Of a DNA stretch of 64,000 nucleotides, positions 48,203-56,734 are shown in pieces (the stretch's first letter is position 1; each line of letters opens with the position of its first letter). Below the pieces are notes generated by a model. It was not told where the DNA came from, ran no database searches, and worked only from the letters and a program-made list of their open reading frames with translations. The DNA is taken from positions 4,629 through 68,628 of the forward strand of contig JAFWDV010000019.1 of assembly GCA_017515985.1 (NCBI GenBank), written 5' to 3'. This stretch comes from Clostridia bacterium (lineage in GTDB: Bacteria > Bacillota > Clostridia > TANB77 > CAG-508). Both the position numbers and the translations under genes were made by a program.

Positions 48203-49546
48203 ATGAAGAAGAAAATATTGATAGTAATAGCATGTGTATTAGCATCATTAGCAGTATTGTGTCACATCTATATACCAGAGCATGAAATAAACAATACTAT
48301 TGCAGAAGTACAGAATATTGTAGAAAATGAGATTAAGAAAGATGATAATCTATCTACAACGGAAATACCTGAACGTACTATTGAAGATGAAGAAAATCTT
48401 GAAAGTCAAGAGGTAGAAAATGAGGCATTTGAGTTACAAGGCGAAATAGCATACAACGGAGATGCTAAGACATGGAGTATATCTACAGGAAACACGCCAC
48501 AATTAACATATATTTCTCAGATAGATAGTAGATGGAGATATCATTCATATACTAGTATAGGGGATTCTAGCCAAACAATAGGCTCGAGTGGATGTGGTGT
48601 TGCAAGTGCTGCAATGATAATTGATAGTATTGTAGGAAATGTAAGTGTAACAGAACTAGCTGATATATTTGTTGCTAATGGATATCGTTCGGCCAATAGT
48701 GGTACTTATTGGAGTGCATACAGGGCAGTAGCAGACCAGTTCGACATTGAATATACCGAAACTGATAATTTTAACACAATGATAAATCTATTAAAGAACA
48801 ACAACTATATAATAGCAAGTTGTGGAAATGGATTATTCACATCAGGTGGTCATTACATAGTATTGTATGGAATAGATGGAGATACAATAAAGATATATGA
48901 TCCATATCTATATTCAGGTAAATTTGAAACATCTACACGAAGAAACAAAGTAACAGTAAGTGGAAATACTGTGTATTGTTCTACAAACAATTTCAGAAAA
49001 TACGCTAACTATAAGCAATTCTTCTGTTATGGTTATAATGCAGATACAACAATAACTACTAACTCAACAGATAAACAGGTAACAACTGAAACATATACAA
49101 GATATGTAGCTACAAAATCAAGTAACTTAAATGTAAGAAATAGACCAGAAGGAAATATAGTTGGCTCGCTATCTAAAGGTAGCAAGGTAATAGTATATGA
49201 AACATCTGGCAACTGGTCACGAATTGGAATAGATAAGTGGGTTAGTACACAGTTTCTATCAGAGACTACTAGTCAAACTGTTCAAAAATTGAACAGTTCA
49301 AAATATACAACAGGAAAATACAATGTAACAACTAATATTCACGTCAGAACAGGTGCAGGAATAAATTATAAAGCTAAATCATATAAACAGTTGACCACTA
49401 ATGCTAGATGCCAAAATAAGCAATGTGGCAACGCATATTACAATGGATATATGAAAGGCGTAGTATGTTCTGTAACCGAAGTAAATGGCGAGTGGGGTAA
49501 GACTGCATCAGGTTGGATATGTTTGTCCTATTGTAAAAAAATATAA
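48203..49546 (+). CDS. Endolysin-like cysteine peptidase (C39-like) with two SH3b domains and an N-terminal signal anchor
   Basis: GSSGCGVASAAMII catalytic Cys region, GGHYIVLYG His region, and two SH3_3-like repeats (LNVRNRPEG..., HVRTGAGINY...). Confidence 0.65.
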   Translation: MKKKILIVIACVLASLAVLCHIYIPEHEINNTIAEVQNIVENEIKKDDNLSTTEIPERTIEDEENLESQEVENEAFELQGEIAYNGDAKTWSISTGNTPQLTYISQIDSRWRYHSYTSIGDSSQTIGSSGCGVASAAMIIDSIVGNVSVTELADIFVANGYRSANSGTYWSAYRAVADQFDIEYTETDNFNTMINLLKNNNYIIASCGNGLFTSGGHYIVLYGIDGDTIKIYDPYLYSGKFETSTRRNKVTVSGNTVYCSTNNFRKYANYKQFFCYGYNADTTITTNSTDKQVTTETYTRYVATKSSNLNVRNRPEGNIVGSLSKGSKVIVYETSGNWSRIGIDKWVSTQFLSETTSQTVQKLNSSKYTTGKYNVTTNIHVRTGAGINYKAKSYKQLTTNARCQNKQCGNAYYNGYMKGVVCSVTEVNGEWGKTASGWICLSYCKKI

Positions 49547-49613
49547 AAAATTTTTATTTACTATCCTTCTTTTGTGTGTTAGAATAGCTCAATAAAGTCG
49601 TATATGTGATGAG

Positions 49614-50651
49614 GTGATTGACATACGAAAGAAGGACCCAAGGTATAAAAGAACTATACAAAGAAGAAATATAAAAAATTTAAAACAAAGAACAAAAAGA
49701 AAAAGAAGAAAGTATTCAATTGGAAGACATTTAAGAAGGATGAAGAAACCATATGCTACATTCATTGCTCCAAGAATATTCAGTTTTTTAGAAAATCCAG
49801 ATGAAACAATTTTTTTCTTTAATGAGCTAATAAAAAAAATTGAAGATTTATATATTGGTGGAACTTTATACCTGTTTGTTATAGACATGAAAGACGTTGA
49901 AAAAATCACGGGAGATGCATTGATGTATCTATTGACCGTAATGAGAAATACTAGATTGAATGGTCGAAAAGGAATATATTGGAGGGGAAATTTCCCAAAG
50001 AATGAAAAGATATCATATTTTCTAAAGTCATCAGGATTTTTGCAGTATATGAATACCGCGAAATGTAATCTAGTACATACGGACGAAAATATACAAATTC
50101 AATCAGGTTCATTGATAGAAGCTAATGTAAAAAAATCTATCTGTGATTTTACAAATAAAAAATTAGGTACAGATTTAAAGTATAGTAGATTTTTATCTAA
50201 TATTTTAACTGAGCTTATGACAAATACCAGGGATCATGCATACAATGAAAATAACAAATTTGATTTCTGTTGGTATGTATTTGTGGAAAACACTAATAAT
50301 AAAATTAAATATACGTTTATGGATAACGGTCTAGGAATACCAACAACTGTTAATAAAAAACTAACAGAAAAGCTAAAAGAAAACTTTAAAAAAGAAAAAG
50401 AGCATTCATATATTGAGTCTTGCTTAGACGGAAAATTTTTAAGAACAGAAACAAAACAAAATCACAGAGGAAAAGGATTACCAGAGATTAATACATACTA
50501 TATTGATGGTAAAATATCAGAACTTACCATTATTTCAAATCACGCATATTATAAAAAAAATAATTCAAGTGATTTAAAAAATTATCTATATGGAACTATA
50601 GTTTATTGGGAAATAGATAAGAACAATTTAAAGGAGGAACAACAAAGATGA
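49614..50651 (+). CDS. GHKL-type ATPase (SpoIIAB/RsbW-like HATPase_c) with an N-terminal STAS-like region
   Basis: N-box ELMTNTRDHA, G1 box MDNGLGIP and G2 box HRGKGLPEI. The upstream segment DMKDVEKITGDALMYLL is STAS-like. The true start may be the internal MKKPY (about 49740). Confidence 0.6.
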   Translation: MIDIRKKDPRYKRTIQRRNIKNLKQRTKRKRRKYSIGRHLRRMKKPYATFIAPRIFSFLENPDETIFFFNELIKKIEDLYIGGTLYLFVIDMKDVEKITGDALMYLLTVMRNTRLNGRKGIYWRGNFPKNEKISYFLKSSGFLQYMNTAKCNLVHTDENIQIQSGSLIEANVKKSICDFTNKKLGTDLKYSRFLSNILTELMTNTRDHAYNENNKFDFCWYVFVENTNNKIKYTFMDNGLGIPTTVNKKLTEKLKENFKKEKEHSYIESCLDGKFLRTETKQNHRGKGLPEINTYYIDGKISELTIISNHAYYKKNNSSDLKNYLYGTIVYWEIDKNNLKEEQQR

Positions 50652-50980
50652 AAATTAATATTTGTGATGAATATACAGATGCTCCAGGAGGAAGATATGA
50701 GAGTCAAGGTTCTTTTTCAGGAGAAGATTTCAGAAAAAAAATACTAAAACCTAAGTATATAGAAGCAGCCAATAAAAACGAAACATTATTTATAGATTTT
50801 GATGGTGGGTATGGATATGGTTCTTCTTTTTTAGAAGAGGCATTTGGTGGATTAATACGAGAATTAAAAGCGGAAAATAATTTAATATACAAGAAAGCTT
50901 TAGAAATAATAGTTATGAAATCAGATGATGAACCAAGTTTAATAGAAAGAGTAGAAGAGTATATGAAAAATCAAATCTAA
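50648..50980 (+). CDS. DUF4325-type STAS-like domain protein
   Basis: FIDFDGGYGYGSSFLEEAFGGLI pattern. Start overlaps the upstream stop (ATGA). Confidence 0.55.
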   Translation: MKINICDEYTDAPGGRYESQGSFSGEDFRKKILKPKYIEAANKNETLFIDFDGGYGYGSSFLEEAFGGLIRELKAENNLIYKKALEIIVMKSDDEPSLIERVEEYMKNQI

Positions 50981-50996
50981 ATTAGAGGAGAAAAAA

Positions 50997-51551
50997 ATGA
51001 AGATACAATTTGAATTAAAGAAGAAACATGCATATATATTAGTTGGAGTAATTTTATTTATTATAATTTCCTTTATCAACACAAAATTTCTATATGATGA
51101 CTGGAAGGAATACTGGAGAATGTCATTATATGAATTATTGACAATAATTGTAGGAAGTATTGTTATTTATGGATTAAATAAAAAAGATAACAAAGAGGCA
51201 AAATTATATGATAAGATTGAAAATAAATGCGAGGATTTGAAAAGGTATATTAAGCATAATTTAAATTCAATTCCCATAATGGAAAAAGAAGAAAGACTCA
51301 CAAAAATAAGGTATATTTCTAATCAGATTAACAATCTGGAACGATACTTAAAAAGTATGGACAAGTTATCTGATAAATTTGAAAAACTACAACAAGCATT
51401 TAAAAACTTAAATGATTTTGTATCTGACAATATAGATCAAAAGAAAGAATATTTTGATGAAGACAATAGAAAGGTAAAATTAGAGCAGCTAATTAATAAC
51501 ATTGAGCTTCGATTAGAAGATATAATAATTTTTACATATACGTATGAATAA
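50997..51551 (+). CDS. Two-TM protein with a cytoplasmic coiled coil
   Basis: Hydrophobic segments at residues about 12-30 and 42-60, then heptad-rich sequence. Confidence 0.45.
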   Translation: MKIQFELKKKHAYILVGVILFIIISFINTKFLYDDWKEYWRMSLYELLTIIVGSIVIYGLNKKDNKEAKLYDKIENKCEDLKRYIKHNLNSIPIMEKEERLTKIRYISNQINNLERYLKSMDKLSDKFEKLQQAFKNLNDFVSDNIDQKKEYFDEDNRKVKLEQLINNIELRLEDIIIFTYTYE

Positions 51552-51656
51552 AAAGAGACTAGCCCAAAAGCTAGTCTTTAAAACTTTATGCATTCGACAA
51601 GTTTCGACACATCAATTTACATAAATATGCTATAATCATCAAAAGAGGGTGGTTGT

Positions 51657-51797
51657 ATGGAAATTGATTTATTAATAATTCGCAACCGTGCACGACTTGA
51701 AAAAATGATTACAGAAGAAAAAGATTATAAAAAAATTTTAAGACAAAGTCAAAAACTAGACAGATTACTTAATAAAAAGATGAAAGAGCTTGTATAA
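51657..51797 (+). CDS. Spo0E-family aspartyl-phosphate phosphatase-like protein (46 aa)
   Basis: MEIDLLIIRNRARLEKMITEEKDYKKILRQSQKLDRLLNKKMKELV. The SQxLDxLl motif and the size match the Spo0E family. RBS GAGGGTGG; terminator 51785-51816. Confidence 0.6.
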   Translation: MEIDLLIIRNRARLEKMITEEKDYKKILRQSQKLDRLLNKKMKELV

Positions 51798-51846
51798 GAA
51801 ACAGGCTCTTTTTTTGGTGAAAAATATATATTTTAGATTAGTACCA

Positions 51847-51866
51847 AGTAGACAATTAGTAGACAA
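51847..51866 (+). promoter_or_regulatory. Two AGTAGACAA direct repeats (candidate integrase arm-type sites, right arm)
   Basis: Copies at 51847-51855 and 51858-51866, identical to the pair at 15232-15252. Confidence 0.55.
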
Positions 51867-51926
51867 TTATAAAAATAAAATCAACTGTTAAAGTCTTAAA
51901 CAATTGATTTTACTATACTTTGATAC

Positions 51927-51960
51927 TTTGGTGACCCCTACGGGAATCGAACCCATGATT
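51927..51960. repeat. attR core (phage-supplied 3-prime end of the functional tRNA-Glu)
   Basis: Identical to 15096-15129. Confidence 0.95.
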
Positions 51961-52003
51961 CGGCCTTGAGAGGGCCGCGTCTTAACCGCTTGACCAAGGG
52001 GCC
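51929..52003 (-). tRNA. tRNA-Glu (anticodon CUC), CCA encoded
   Basis: GGCCCCTTGGTCAAGCGGTTAAGACGCGGCCCTCTCAAGGCCGAATCATGGGTTCGATTCCCGTAGGGGTCACCA. The 7-bp acceptor stem pairs and the anticodon loop is CTCTCAA. Confidence 0.9.
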
Positions 52004-52098
52004 AAAAATTTGATACCCTATATTTATAACATAATTGTAGTGTTTCGTCAATAGGTAAAAAGAAATTTTGGAAACGAGAAAAAATGGGACGTGAAAAA

Positions 52099-52150
52099 GG
52101 GGACGGACTCATTTTTAAAGTACTAAAAAATGAGTCCGTCTCCTTTTTTT
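52099..52150. terminator. Bidirectional terminator (glmS 3-prime end)
   Basis: 15-bp perfect arms GACGGACTCATTTTT / AAAAATGAGTCCGTC with T-runs on both strands. Confidence 0.8.
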
Positions 52151-52183
52151 TCGTCCGCCTTTGTAGCTTCTTGTTTTTATTTT

Positions 52184-54019
52184 TTATTCAACAGTTACAG
52201 ATTTTGCTAAGTTTCTTGGTTTATCAACATCTAATCCTTTTTCTTTAGATATATAGTAAGATAACAATTGTAATGGTATTACAGATAGAATAGGAGATAG
52301 AAGTGGATTAGTTTTTTCTATATGTATTACATTTTCAAAATGAGCATTTGATAAATCTAGATTTGTTATAATAAATGTTTTAGCTCCACGAGTTATTACT
52401 TCTTGAATATTGCTTATTGATTTTTCTACTAAGTTTTCATCAGTTAAAATACTAATTACAGTTATATCTTTTTCAATCAAAGCAATAGGTCCATGTTTTA
52501 ATTCACCAGATGCATACGCTTCTGAATGTATGTATGATATTTCTTTTAGTTTTAAAGATCCTTCTAACGCAACATTGTAGTCTGATCCTCTTCCGATAAA
52601 GAACATATCTTTTTCACCATAAATTTGTTTTGCAAATGCTTTAACTTCATCAGCAGATTTTAATGAAGTTTCAACTTTTTGTGGTAATTCTAATATATCT
52701 TTTTTGATATTTTCAATTGCTTCTTGGCTTTGACTTCCCAAAATTTCAGCAAAGTATACAGCAAGAATTCCTAATAAAACAACCTGTGAAGTATAAGCTT
52801 TTGTTGAAGCAACGGCTATTTCAGGTCCTGCATGTGTGTAAATTGTGTAATCAGCTTCTCTTGTAATAGAACTGCCGATAACGTTTGAAACTGCTAATGT
52901 TTTAGCTCCGTTTTCTCTACAAAGTTTTAAAGCAGCAATTGTATCTGCAGTTTCTCCTGATTGGCTTATGAAAATGCATAATGTTTTGCTATCAACAATA
53001 GGATTTCTGTATCTAAATTCTGAAGCAATATCAACTTCTACAGGAATTTTACATAGATTTTCTATAAATTTTTTACCTGTTAATCCTGCATGCATTGCTG
53101 TTCCGCAAGCTACGATATATATTTTATTAATTGTAGATAGATAGTCCTTTGATATTTCTATATCGCTAAAGTCACATGGCTCACCTAATTTTAATCTTGA
53201 TCCAATAGTTTCTCTTATAGCTGTTGGTTGCTCATATATTTCTTTTAGCATATAGTCGTCATATCCATTTTTTTCAGCGGCTGTTGCTGCCCATTCAATA
53301 TTTTTAATTTCTTTAGAGTGTTCATTCAAGTTTTTGTCATAGAATGATATTGAATTATTTTCTATAACAGTGTACTCATAATCATCTAATAAATAAAAGT
53401 CTCTAGTATACTCAAGTAGGGCAGGAATATCAGATGCAATGTGATATCCTTCTTTGCCTTTTCCAATAACTAATGGACTGTCTTTTCTTACAACAATCAT
53501 TTGGTTAGGATATAAACTTGATAAAACTTCAATAGCAAAGCTTCCTTTTAAATCGGCAGTTGCTTTTTGAACGGCACTTAAAAATTTATTATCGCCTGAT
53601 TCTTTTGAAAAATAATAATGTATTAAGTTAGGTATAACTTCTGTATCAGTTTGAGATAAAAATTTATATCCATTATCAGTTAAAAATTTTCTTAAATCAT
53701 TATAATTCTCTATAATTCCATTATGAACTACAGCGAAGGTCTCGCTATTATCCATATGTGGATGAGAATTTTCTTTTGAAGGTTTTCCATGAGTTGCCCA
53801 TCTTGTATGAGCAATACCAATTGTTCCTGTTAGGTCTGTTAGACCAGGGATACTGTTTAAATTGCTAACTCTTCCTTTATCCTTCATTACACATATTTTG
53901 TTTTCTTCCATAGAAGCTATTCCTGCCGAGTCATAACCTCTATATTCTAGGGCTGTTAGCCCATTGATTAAAATTGGGTATGCTTTTTTTGTTCCAACAT
54001 ATCCTACGATTCCACACAT
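52184..54019 (-). CDS. glmS: Glutamine--fructose-6-phosphate aminotransferase
   Basis: MCGIVGY N-terminus, two SIS domains and a ...AKSVTVE end. Confidence 0.95.
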   Translation of the reverse strand: MCGIVGYVGTKKAYPILINGLTALEYRGYDSAGIASMEENKICVMKDKGRVSNLNSIPGLTDLTGTIGIAHTRWATHGKPSKENSHPHMDNSETFAVVHNGIIENYNDLRKFLTDNGYKFLSQTDTEVIPNLIHYYFSKESGDNKFLSAVQKATADLKGSFAIEVLSSLYPNQMIVVRKDSPLVIGKGKEGYHIASDIPALLEYTRDFYLLDDYEYTVIENNSISFYDKNLNEHSKEIKNIEWAATAAEKNGYDDYMLKEIYEQPTAIRETIGSRLKLGEPCDFSDIEISKDYLSTINKIYIVACGTAMHAGLTGKKFIENLCKIPVEVDIASEFRYRNPIVDSKTLCIFISQSGETADTIAALKLCRENGAKTLAVSNVIGSSITREADYTIYTHAGPEIAVASTKAYTSQVVLLGILAVYFAEILGSQSQEAIENIKKDILELPQKVETSLKSADEVKAFAKQIYGEKDMFFIGRGSDYNVALEGSLKLKEISYIHSEAYASGELKHGPIALIEKDITVISILTDENLVEKSISNIQEVITRGAKTFIITNLDLSNAHFENVIHIEKTNPLLSPILSVIPLQLLSYYISKEKGLDVDKPRNLAKSVTVE

Positions 54020-54049
54020 TAAAATCACAATCCTTTCTTGTTTGTTTTA

Positions 54050-54228
54050 TATTTGAGATATACGGATCTATGGTGCTGTGAATATTATTCTGTAACTGAC
54101 ATTGCTATCAGTTTTTGTAAATATTCTAATGACCAGCACATGGCCATAGAGCATCCGCCGAAAATTCGATAAACTCTAACCTCGTCAGCAATAGAGCATA
54201 TTTGATATATTCTATTGCTCTGGCGCTT
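54050..54228 (-). ncRNA. glmS ribozyme
   Basis: The minus strand reads A-GCGCCAGAG...CTGACGAGGTTAGAGTTTATCGAATTTTCGGCGGATGC, matching the conserved core upstream of glmS. Confidence 0.85.
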
Positions 54229-54375
54229 GAAAATTAACCTCCTTCATTTAAACTTTTGTATATCTTCAATATGCGCTAATAATATAATAAAAATAAAATA
54301 AATGCAACAAAAATATAATTGACACTAGATAGATATATGGTTATAATTTATGTAGATTAATTAGGAGGTAGAAAA

Positions 54376-54873
54376 ATGGAATTAAATATAGATATAGCGT
54401 ATGCTTATTTTTCTGTTATAATGATGATTGTAGGAATTTTTATAGGTGTTATATATACGATTCTATTCATAGGAAAAAGAGCTGGTTTATGGGGAATCTT
54501 TTCAAAGGCTGGCGAAAAAGAGTGGAAATCAATTGTTCCAGTATATAATCAAATAACATTGCTTAAAATATGTAAACTAAATCCATGGTTTATAGTATTA
54601 TATTTAGATTTTATAATTCCATTTATAGGATATATTGCAGGAAGAGATGTTAAGTGGATTACGATAATAATGCTAGTTGGATTACTAATATACAGATTTT
54701 TAATTGCAATTAGATTAGGTCAGGCGTTTAAAAAAGGTGATGTTTTCTCGTTCTTTACTGCATTCTTCCAATCAATACTATTTCCAGTATTAGGTTGCTC
54801 AAAGAATGAAAAATTCGGAGATATAGTAGTTAGAGATAAAAAGAAAATTAAAAGTGCGACAACTACAAAATAA
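54376..54873 (+). CDS. DUF5684-like membrane protein
   Basis: GLWGIFSKAGEKEWKSIVPVYN motif and multiple TM segments. Confidence 0.55.
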   Translation: MELNIDIAYAYFSVIMMIVGIFIGVIYTILFIGKRAGLWGIFSKAGEKEWKSIVPVYNQITLLKICKLNPWFIVLYLDFIIPFIGYIAGRDVKWITIIMLVGLLIYRFLIAIRLGQAFKKGDVFSFFTAFFQSILFPVLGCSKNEKFGDIVVRDKKKIKSATTTK

Positions 54874-54940
54874 AAAATAAACGAAAGAGACAGATGACTT
54901 AAAGTCAAATGTCTCGTTTTTAATAGTGAAAGGAATTTAT

Positions 54941-56734
54941 ATGTTTGATATCGAAAAAGAGCTAAAGAAACTGCCAGACAAGCCTGGCGTATATATTATG
55001 CATGATAAAAATGATAAGATTATTTACGTGGGAAAAGCTATTAATTTAAAAAGAAGAGTAACATCATATTTTAGAAAAACAAATAAAACTCAAAGAATTA
55101 AAAATATGGTTTCTTTAATTGACCATTTTGAATATATAGTGGTAGAAAATGAGGCGGAAGCTCTAATTTTAGAATGTAATTTAATCAAAAAGAATATGCC
55201 TAAGTTTAACGTGCTTTTGAAGGATGATAAAACTTATCCATACATAAAGGTTAGTGTTCAAACAGATTATCCGGATGTATATTTAACAAGACGAGTACTA
55301 AATGATGGAGCAAAATATTTTGGCCCATATGCTAATCCTGGAAGTGCAAAAGAAATGGTTGAGCTTATCAAGAATAAGTTTAAGATTAGACAGTGTAGAA
55401 ATTTTAAATATAAGGATAGACCATGCCTTAATTATCACATAAAGAAATGTATGGCACCATGTATGGGTTATGTTTCAAAAGAAGAATATAAAAAGCAAAT
55501 TGATGAAATTATAGATTTACTGGAAGGCAAGACAGATAAAATTATAAAAGAGCTGAAAGCACAAATGGATGAGGCATCAAAAAAGATGAACTATGAGCAA
55601 GCAGCATATTTAAGAGATAAAATTGTTGCAATACAAAATGTATCTGAACGTCAGAAAGTATCAAATATGGGCGAAAATGATATTGATGTAATTGGACTTG
55701 CAAGAAATGATATGGAAGTATGTATCGAAATTTTCTTTGTTAGAAAAAGTAAAATGATAGGAAGAGAGCATTATTTCTTTAGAGGATTACAAGATGAGGA
55801 AAAGTCAGAAATTTTATCAAGTTTCATAAAACAGTTTTATATTGGTAAAACAGAGTTACCTAACAAAATTATGATAAAAGAAGAAATTGAAGATAAAGAT
55901 GCTCTTGAATTATTGCTAACTAGCCAAGCTGAAAGAAAGGTTGAAATTAAGACACCACAAAAAGGTGAAAAACTAAGACTTGTAGAAATGGCTGAAAACA
56001 ATGCTTATGTAGCTTTAAGTAATAAGGAGCAGGAAAAACAAAATGTACTTACAGAGCTAAAGGATGTTTTGAAATTAGATAAATATCCAAGAAAGATTGA
56101 ATGCTATGATATATCAAATATTTCAGGAAATTATATAGTGGCTGGTATGTGCGTAATGGAAAATGGCGTAATAAAGAAAAACTTAGCTAGAAGATTTAAA
56201 ATAAAAACAGTTGCTTTTAATCAAGATGATCCTAAATGTATGAATGAAGTTATTTATAGAAGGCTAAAACATTCTATAGATAAGGAAGATGACGGTTTTG
56301 GGGCTTTACCAGATGTTATTTTTGTAGATGGAGGAATTACTCAAATTAGAGCTGCAAAGCAGGCTATGTTAGATTTAAATCTAAATATACCAATTTTTGG
56401 TATGGTTAAAAATGATAAGCATCAAACAAGAGCTTTAATGAATGAAAATAGGGAAGAGCTTAAAATTTCTGAAATATTGTTTAACACTATAACCATGTTC
56501 CAGGATGCAGTTCATGATACTGCTATTGGATATCATAGAAAACTTAGAGACGAGGCTATGACTAAGTCGAAATTGGATGAAATTCCAGGTATTGGTACTG
56601 CAAAAAAGGCTATGCTCTTGAAAAAATTTGGAAGTACTGATAAAATAGCAAAAGCTTCAATTGAAGAGCTAAAAGAAATAAAAGGAATAAATGAAAGTTT
56701 AGCTGAGATGATACTTAAATATTTAGCTGAATAG
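54941..56734 (+). CDS. uvrC: Excinuclease ABC subunit C
   Basis: GIY-YIG (PGVYIMHD...IIYVGKA), UVR domain, and a C-terminal (HhH)2. Confidence 0.95.
   Translation: MFDIEKELKKLPDKPGVYIMHDKNDKIIYVGKAINLKRRVTSYFRKTNKTQRIKNMVSLIDHFEYIVVENEAEALILECNLIKKNMPKFNVLLKDDKTYPYIKVSVQTDYPDVYLTRRVLNDGAKYFGPYANPGSAKEMVELIKNKFKIRQCRNFKYKDRPCLNYHIKKCMAPCMGYVSKEEYKKQIDEIIDLLEGKTDKIIKELKAQMDEASKKMNYEQAAYLRDKIVAIQNVSERQKVSNMGENDIDVIGLARNDMEVCIEIFFVRKSKMIGREHYFFRGLQDEEKSEILSSFIKQFYIGKTELPNKIMIKEEIEDKDALELLLTSQAERKVEIKTPQKGEKLRLVEMAENNAYVALSNKEQEKQNVLTELKDVLKLDKYPRKIECYDISNISGNYIVAGMCVMENGVIKKNLARRFKIKTVAFNQDDPKCMNEVIYRRLKHSIDKEDDGFGALPDVIFVDGGITQIRAAKQAMLDLNLNIPIFGMVKNDKHQTRALMNENREELKISEILFNTITMFQDAVHDTAIGYHRKLRDEAMTKSKLDEIPGIGTAKKAMLLKKFGSTDKIAKASIEELKEIKGINESLAEMILKYLAE

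Follow-up and report, generated by a model that had tools for sequence, protein, structure and literature searches.

The window considered in this work is the whole stretch of 64,000 nucleotides taken from a Clostridia bacterium (NCBI GenBank assembly GCA_017515985.1, contig JAFWDV010000019.1, positions 4,629 to 68,628 of the forward strand), and it includes a prophage of about 36.9 kb (~37 kb), which is bounded by the direct repeats attL and attR. Between the endolysin gene of this prophage and attR lies a cassette of three genes on the forward strand, designated here A, B and C, and the present paper deals with the proteins that they encode and with what these may do (coordinates are collected in Table 1). 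The cassette was noticed at first from the nucleotide sequence, and this original prediction described three tightly packed genes; the arrangement, all three being co-oriented, is borne out by the open reading frames (ORFs), by the att repeat, by an ATGA in which the end of A overlaps the start of B, and by a gap of 16 nucleotides between B and C, which holds a GAGGAG Shine-Dalgarno sequence, the overlap and the gap being read directly in the sequence. The domains proposed for the products hold as well: a kinase of the SpoIIAB/RsbW type that includes a STAS-like region, a partner of the DUF4325 family, and a coiled-coil protein with two transmembrane segments. B and C have strong Shine-Dalgarno sequences whereas A has a poor start, which fits a stoichiometric pair together with a scarce enzyme. 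In addition, the same phage is present in a circularly permuted form on a metagenomic contig (L048), where the order is lysin, A, B, C, Spo0E-like gene, integrase and S24 repressor. Since this circular copy carries A, B and C, the cassette is phage-borne and is cargo at the lysin/att junction; with attL, attR and the integrase, the moron location that had been suggested is well founded.

CapK, an HTH-STAS-GHKL protein (HTH, helix-turn-helix), is a kinase activated by single-stranded DNA (ssDNA), which phosphorylates Ser54 of CapS, a repressor with a STAS and a winged HTH (wHTH) domain, and the CapK-CapS pair controls immune operons, among them those of CBASS, Bub and Thoeris (Chambers et al., EMBO J 2026, PMC13373217). 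The same paper describes VapKSC, a three-gene operon in which VapK (STAS-GHKL) places a phosphate on Ser48 of VapS, the STAS antitoxin; the phosphorylation frees the PIN toxin VapC, and the operon protects against phage Bas42 (PMC13373217). Both kinases respond to DNA damage and have an aromatic residue that stacks on ssDNA, W68 in CapK, located between the STAS and GHKL domains, and F54 in VapK, and the number of VapKSC operons reported is 289 (PMC13373217). Among the papers searched, VapKSC is mentioned in this one alone. A VapC PIN clade that an older survey described as 'transcriptionally coupled to DUF4325 genes' is, as we infer, the vapKSC clade. The sequences of VapK, VapS, CapK and CapS compared below are those of the appendix of PMC13373217.

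Protein A consists of three parts, and these are seen in its AlphaFold2 model (predicted local distance difference test, pLDDT, 88; predicted template modelling score, pTM, 0.85) as a basic helix (residues 11-42, pLDDT 85-95), a (beta-alpha)4 segment (48-185) and a Bergerat fold (190-345). Homologues of A obtained by word search number 268, and the kinase profile collects 4196 representative clusters at E<=1e-3 and 1055 at E<=1e-30; full-length relatives of A make up more than 1000 representative clusters. The GHKL motifs E200/N204/H208-A-Y, D237xG239xG241-I-P, G288-L-P and G327-T328, which represent the N, G1, G2 and G3 boxes, do not vary among 70 homologues, and the STAS-like domain has conserved motifs of its own, T99-x-D101-A102-L-M104-Y105 and S140-G141-F. 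When the model was compared with the PDB by Foldseek, the top six matches were all SpoIIAB (E 5e-6 to 4e-4), among them 1th8, 1til, 1l0o and 1tid with E 5e-6 to 2e-4 and target-normalised template modelling scores (TM-scores) of 0.71-0.75, and these were followed by UsfX, a histidine kinase and RsbW. A profile search of the PDB likewise gave SpoIIAB on top, though weakly (E 0.8). The Pfam HATPase_c model stays below its threshold on A (18 bits against a cutoff of 26.4), and PF02518 is recorded in 8 of the 120 homologues of A listed. The expected relation to GHKL proteins thus holds by the invariant motifs and by the structural comparison with SpoIIAB, but for A itself not by the Pfam profile. 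A also matches phrog_3364, a family of which the function is not named (E 2e-34).

By profile-profile alignment with hhalign, A is aligned to VapK over 221 columns (E 3e-5) and to CapK over 166 columns (E 1.3e-6, probability 91%), and both alignments run into the STAS-like domain, from A96 and A126, respectively, compared with 56 columns only for SpoIIAB. A is therefore predicted, from its motifs and its model, to be a CapK/VapK-like serine kinase of the SpoIIAB type. The basic N-terminus is retained across the family and also in the homologues from Leptospira, Vibrio, Acinetobacter and a Marinobacter phage; since distant proteobacterial and spirochaete proteins such as these still have it, W14 and K21 being near-invariant, it is taken as real coding sequence, and the conserved helix could bind nucleic acid. 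The gene caller starts the protein at Met43 (P0001, 303 amino acids). A DUF4325-like nature of the N-terminal domain of A was considered as well, but no similarity appeared when the profiles of A and B were compared by hhalign; the domain has no direct match to B or DUF4325, and in BFVD a DUF4325 protein is matched just weakly (E 0.77).

Protein B is a single domain without HTH and belongs to the Pfam family DUF4325 (PF14213, 'STAS-like', E 5e-12). In the alignment of its homologues, of which 929 were gathered, the core motif D52-G-G-Y-G-Y-G-S-S60-F-L-E-E-A-F-G-G-L is nearly invariant, and Ser60 (codon 50825-50827), in the SSF motif, is itself near-invariant. The AlphaFold2 model of B (pLDDT 96.7) has S60 at the N-terminus of helix 59-75. 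VapS is of the same family (DUF4325, E 2.7e-17), hhalign pairs S60 of B with S48 of VapS, and the 'DSS54F' motif of CapS corresponds to 'GSS60F' in B. Judged by these alignments, A is shown to be homologous to CapK and VapK, and B to VapS and CapS, the acceptor serine included, so that Ser60 is the predicted phospho-acceptor of B. Sequence and profile searches of the PDB with B gave nothing, and the STAS structures that Foldseek returned were weak matches (RsfB, E 0.83; SLC26 STAS, 1.4; RsbS, 2.1). Apart from this, B aligns to positions 340-438 of phrog_5816, a profile of 441 positions with no named function. As the alignment lies at the end of the profile, some phages encode a far longer protein that has a DUF4325 domain at its end and may be a fusion.

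Protein C has two N-terminal hydrophobic helices (residues ~12-29 and ~41-59, nucleotides 51030-51173) and, beyond this transmembrane pair, about 120 amino acids that are heptad-rich and coiled-coil-like. It evolves fastest among the three proteins, with a median identity to the C of the window of 28%, compared with 40.5% for A and 53% for B, and is the least conserved of the trio in 43 of 44 loci. A word search gave 3 homologues only, and the others were recovered by an iterative search on the fetched loci. No Pfam, PADLOC or PDB relative recurs across the 41 family members. The PDB searches gave coiled-coil noise, a V-SNARE match in Pfam (26.5 bits) was put down to coiled-coil chance since 1 of the 41 members matches, and PADLOC has a weak match of C to CARF_TM (E 5.5e-4). 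The tail of C was once thought of as a charge partner for the basic helix of A, an idea that was dropped because the tail is near neutral (median net charge -2). By its sequence and by analogy with the known operon, C is predicted to be the effector. NCBIfam, PHROG and PADLOC scans gave no functional name for any of the trio proteins.

The distribution of the cassette was surveyed by a pattern scan with one genome per species, and 46 loci were obtained. B lies directly 3' of A in 44 of them, and the two exceptions are a locus that ends at a contig edge and another (L018) that has neither B nor C. Directly behind B, a membrane/coiled-coil ORF of ~175-200 amino acids, homologous or analogous to C, is found in 44 of 44 loci. 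The order A-B-C is retained wherever downstream sequence exists, L018 apart, and this in at least six phyla, the hosts including Clostridia, Bacilli, Erysipelotrichaceae, Endomicrobiaceae, Bacteroidales, Deltaproteobacteria, Bacteriovoracaceae and Hydrogenedentes. In addition, the kinase occurs on 16 IMG/VR viral contigs, and the trio is complete in all 8 of these that have a close full-length A and enough downstream sequence. The third gene still encodes a membrane protein in five distant viral loci (L072-L076), whose A is 22-25% identical. There, one N-terminal and one C-terminal transmembrane segment surround a helical region, in place of two N-terminal segments, which indicates that the membrane effector has been remodelled within the family. 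Furthermore, the trio is located in Marinobacter phage AS1 beside Cro/CI, on a Leptospira plasmid beside MNT/HepT, on a Vibrio plasmid beside MazEF and on an Acinetobacter plasmid beside RelE, and Francisella phage KIRK has a 293-amino-acid protein, a DUF4325 protein and a transmembrane protein behind its CI repressor (PMC7924643). The original prediction would have been refuted by a trio not conserved as a unit, and this is decisively not the case, as the unit is found in 44 of 46 genome loci as well as in phages and plasmids.

Among the neighbouring ORFs of the trio loci no fourth gene is conserved with the trio. The flanks contain integrases, recombinases, Mob proteins, holins and lysins, together with restriction-modification (R-M) genes, YhcG-type nucleases and matches to AbiH, Abi_alpha, SIR2, Fic, PDC-S01, PDC-S02, mad2 and HEC-06, a context that resembles defence islands. 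Two cassettes are decayed. One (L052, 8001-10279) has the kinase, a 59-amino-acid remnant of B and a Fic gene but no C, and in the other (L018, 1680-2693) the kinase is intact while B and C are gone; the kinase can thus outlive the loss of its partners.

In a rival reading, the same kinase-STAS switch would serve the life cycle of the element, C being a holin-, antiholin- or lysis-timing-type protein, a membrane anchor or a sensor, and A and B coupling it to DNA damage or induction. Holin and endolysin genes adjoin the trio in the prophage of the window and on several viral contigs, C is a small protein with two transmembrane segments and falls in the size class of holins, and the DNA damage to which CapK and VapK respond is also the signal for induction. 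However, the trio is found equally on plasmids and chromosomal islands without lysis genes, AS1 and KIRK carry it in the immunity region beside the repressor and not in a lysis cassette, and this prophage already has a holin-like gene and a lysin of its own on the upstream side, so that such a function is considered unlikely. Slightly less probable again is a three-component addiction module, which would stabilise prophages and plasmids by post-segregational killing and have no anti-phage role. The plasmid sites beside MazEF, RelE and MNT/HepT, the toxin-antitoxin-like architecture and the fast-evolving third gene would suit this idea, but a dedicated signal-sensing kinase is needless for simple addiction, R-M and Abi genes are present in the neighbourhood, and the homologous VapKSC protects against phage (PMC13373217). 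Addiction and defence are compatible roles and do not exclude each other.

Among the systems already described, VapKSC is the closest to the cassette. The operon order in both is kinase, small STAS protein and effector; the kinase has STAS-like and GHKL domains, A being remotely similar to VapK; the small protein is of DUF4325 with an aligned acceptor serine; and both systems are mobile, with a partial link to defence islands. On the other side, the third gene of the cassette encodes a coiled-coil membrane protein with two transmembrane segments whereas VapC is a PIN nuclease, the N-terminus of A forms a conserved basic helix of ~45 amino acids that VapK does not have, the ssDNA contact F54 of VapK is not evidently kept in A, and B carries its own near-invariant GGYGYGSSFLEEAFGGL motif. 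No PIN domain was found for C in Pfam, NCBIfam, PHROG or PADLOC, and no PIN gene occupies the third position in the 44 loci. In the text of PMC13373217 the word 'transmembrane' is not used, and the 4 uses of 'membrane' all refer to blotting or stress reagents, so that no membrane third gene is mentioned there. With CapK-CapS the cassette has in common a pair of kinase and STAS substrate and the SSF acceptor motif (S54 in CapS). However, B has no wHTH DNA-binding domain such as that of CapS and is not a repressor; CapK has an N-terminal HTH where A has the basic helix; and there is no regulated immune operon downstream, C being the sole partner and later genes being variable. Consequently, the original statement that the combination has no name needs to be divided: the kinase-STAS logic is already known from CapK/CapS and VapKSC (PMC13373217), and what is new is that the third gene encodes a membrane protein and that the kinase begins with a basic helix, neither of which has been described.

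The SpoIIAB-SpoIIAA and RsbW-RsbV pairs are related to the cassette by the kinase fold of A and by a serine at the N-terminus of a STAS helix as the kinase substrate. This bears on the other proposal of the original prediction, that A and B are an anti-sigma/anti-anti-sigma pair rewiring a host sigma factor or sporulation, for which the best structural matches of A (SpoIIAB, UsfX and RsbW) and the weak Spo0E-like ORF next door can be cited. However, the trio has neither a sigma factor partner nor a PP2C phosphatase gene, and none of either is present among the 25 commonest families listed per scan for 284 neighbour ORFs. A has an extra STAS-like domain and the basic helix in cis, that is, the two-domain architecture of CapK and VapK and not the single-domain dimeric form of SpoIIAB, and B is just distantly STAS-like, without a significant Foldseek match. 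Moreover, the Spo0E-like ORF is missing from all the other trio loci, the trio always has its own membrane protein, and it occurs on plasmids and in several lineages not known as spore-formers, namely Leptospira, Vibrio, Acinetobacter, Marinobacter, the Bacteroidales and the Deltaproteobacteria. The rewiring of sigma factors or sporulation is therefore very improbable.

A more distant parallel is found in lambda RexAB and similar prophage exclusion systems, which consist of a sensor and a membrane effector, rexAB being located beside cI. They are likewise prophage modules with a cytoplasmic sensor and a small membrane protein, and in AS1 and KIRK the trio, too, lies beside the repressor. On the other hand, there is no relation in sequence or fold, and Rex has no kinase or STAS component.

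Taken together, the conserved unit, the kinase folds, the link to CapK and VapK, the fastest evolution of C and the defence-type neighbours lead to the reading that the cassette is probably a self-contained, mobile, kinase-gated module of toxin-antitoxin-like exclusion (abortive infection), which would belong to the CapK/VapK-STAS class and have a membrane effector in place of a PIN nuclease. To this reading a probability of roughly 55% is given. From homology and gene order, A would be the sensor kinase, B a phospho-switchable inhibitor and C the effector. In the resting lysogen, B would bind the cytoplasmic coiled coil of C and hold C inactive. A cue from infection or damage would activate A, and if CapK and VapK are a guide, this cue is probably a nucleic acid, for instance ssDNA. 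Active A would phosphorylate B on Ser60. Phosphorylated B would then release C, which would damage or depolarise the membrane, and this damage would halt the cell together with the superinfecting phage. The partner-switch type of defence first suggested thus stands as a candidate, the trio having proved to be conserved.

Several observations weigh against this reading. The similarity of A to VapK and CapK is remote (hhalign probability 73-91%), and hhalign puts K97 of A, a variable residue, at the place of F54 of VapK, although the numbering in the supplement, which went through optical character recognition, is uncertain. A profile search with B did not match the VapS structure 9Z7O, and Foldseek with B against the PDB gave nothing significant (best E 0.13). 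PADLOC-DB v2.0.0 has no match for A or B. For C, similarity to a known toxin, holin or pore was found in none of Pfam, NCBIfam, PHROG, PADLOC and the PDB. Finally, in at least one host lineage, which includes a variant with truncated B and no C, the trio is located among ordinary small metabolic genes.

A wider claim, which is put forward tentatively and with less confidence than the reading of the cassette itself, is that the trio may constitute a widespread, uncatalogued anti-phage or superinfection-exclusion system, in which a nucleic-acid-sensing serine kinase with a family-specific basic helix would phosphorylate a STAS 'antitoxin' and in this way set free a membrane-disrupting coiled-coil effector; it would perhaps be the commonest form of the CapK/VapK-STAS class and typically a moron of temperate phages of gut Firmicutes. 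Kinase-STAS switching has been in the immune literature since 2026 with one effector type, the PIN nuclease, and one regulatory type, the repressor. If a version with a membrane effector is real, it would mark the module as a trigger of general use that can be swapped, much as the cyclases are in CBASS. The abundances differ as well, since 289 operons are reported for VapKSC and the profile of A collects clusters in the thousands, as given above. Furthermore, if the reading is true, the three genes offer a tractable system for the control of a membrane toxin by phosphorylation, and they add a gene set that is likely to protect the lysogen to the prophages of gut Firmicutes. The basic helix and the apparent absence of the residue by which CapK and VapK contact ssDNA hint that the trigger may be another one.

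Table 1. Coordinates of the three genes, the parts of protein A and the neighbouring features in the window.
Feature	Position	Strand	Remarks
Cassette A-B-C	49614-51551	+	three ORFs between endolysin and attR
Gene A	49614-50651	+	345 amino acids, GTG start, start codon uncertain; ORF list
Gene B	50648-50980	+	110 amino acids; DUF4325 STAS-like, VapS/CapS-like; ORF list and Pfam
Gene C	50997-51551	+	184-amino-acid membrane protein, predicted effector; ORF list
A residues 1-45	49614-49748	+	very basic N-terminal helix; W14 and K21 near-invariant; alignments and AlphaFold2
A residues 46-186	49749-50171	+	(beta-alpha)4 STAS-like domain; AlphaFold2 secondary structure
A residues 187-345	50172-50648	+	GHKL (Bergerat-fold) kinase domain; N-box Asn204 codon 50223-50225
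Candidate promoter	49557-49585	+	TTTACT, 17-nucleotide spacer, TG-extended -10 (TGtTAGAAT); consensus scan
Hairpin	51556-51577		9 bp, GC-containing, just 3' of C
Lysin (Peptidase_C39_2 and SH3)	48203-49546	+	directly upstream of A
attL	15096-15129		34-bp direct repeat
Integrase (tyrosine)	15256-16371	-	adjoins attL; S24 repressor nearby
attR core	51927-51960		34-bp direct repeat of attL; overlaps 3' end of tRNA-Glu(CTC)
tRNA-Glu(CTC)	51929-52003	-	integration site of prophage
glmS (host)	52184-54028	-	ordinary host context beyond attR
glmS ribozyme	54070-54238	-	Rfam RF00234, 116 bits; upstream of host glmS

As for the expression of the cassette, an upstream TTGACA had been proposed as part of a promoter. 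This hexamer is present at 49618-49623 but falls within the first codons of A, and a better candidate is the one given in Table 1, whose extended -10 recurs in the equivalent position in L001 and L002, the homologous loci nearest to that of the window. Promoter-like matches in the cassette region are not above the shuffled expectation, and the sequence is described here as a candidate promoter of the cassette. At the other end, the hairpin originally placed at 51556-51580 does exist, with slightly narrower limits, but the terminator (T-tail) rule is satisfied on the reverse strand only; a bidirectional terminator is possible. In many homologues a Shine-Dalgarno-like GRGGTG is located at the annotated start of A (49605-49625 in the window; L001, L006, L012, L014, L016 and L028), and 8-9 nucleotides behind it there is a conserved ATT or ATA codon, the Ile of 'xxIRKN'. 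A may accordingly start at a non-canonical AUU or AUA, or at GTG without a Shine-Dalgarno sequence, and either of these would imply low translation.

An Rfam scan of 49000-55000 found the tRNA and the glmS ribozyme alone and nothing within the cassette. Between the cassette and attR, about 130 bp before the latter, the prophage has a Spo0E-like ORF of 46 amino acids (51657-51797, forward strand), which possesses a promoter-like sequence of its own and behind which there is a GC hairpin with a run of T. The neighbouring Spo0E-like gene of the original prediction is supported in part, by a weak match to PF09388 (E 2.3e-4, 21.5 bits where the cutoff is 23), but it is not in the conserved unit; from its sequence it could encode a phage Spo0E-like phosphatase that modulates host sporulation independently of the cassette. 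On the 5' side of the cassette there are a tail-fibre gene, two small ORFs and the N-terminally anchored lysin, and a holin-like gene is also present upstream. The lysin is unusual in that an N-terminal hydrophobic anchor (MKKKILIVIACVLASLAVL...) is followed by a cysteine peptidase of the Peptidase_C39_2 type and then by SH3 domains, and it may be of the signal-anchor-release type.

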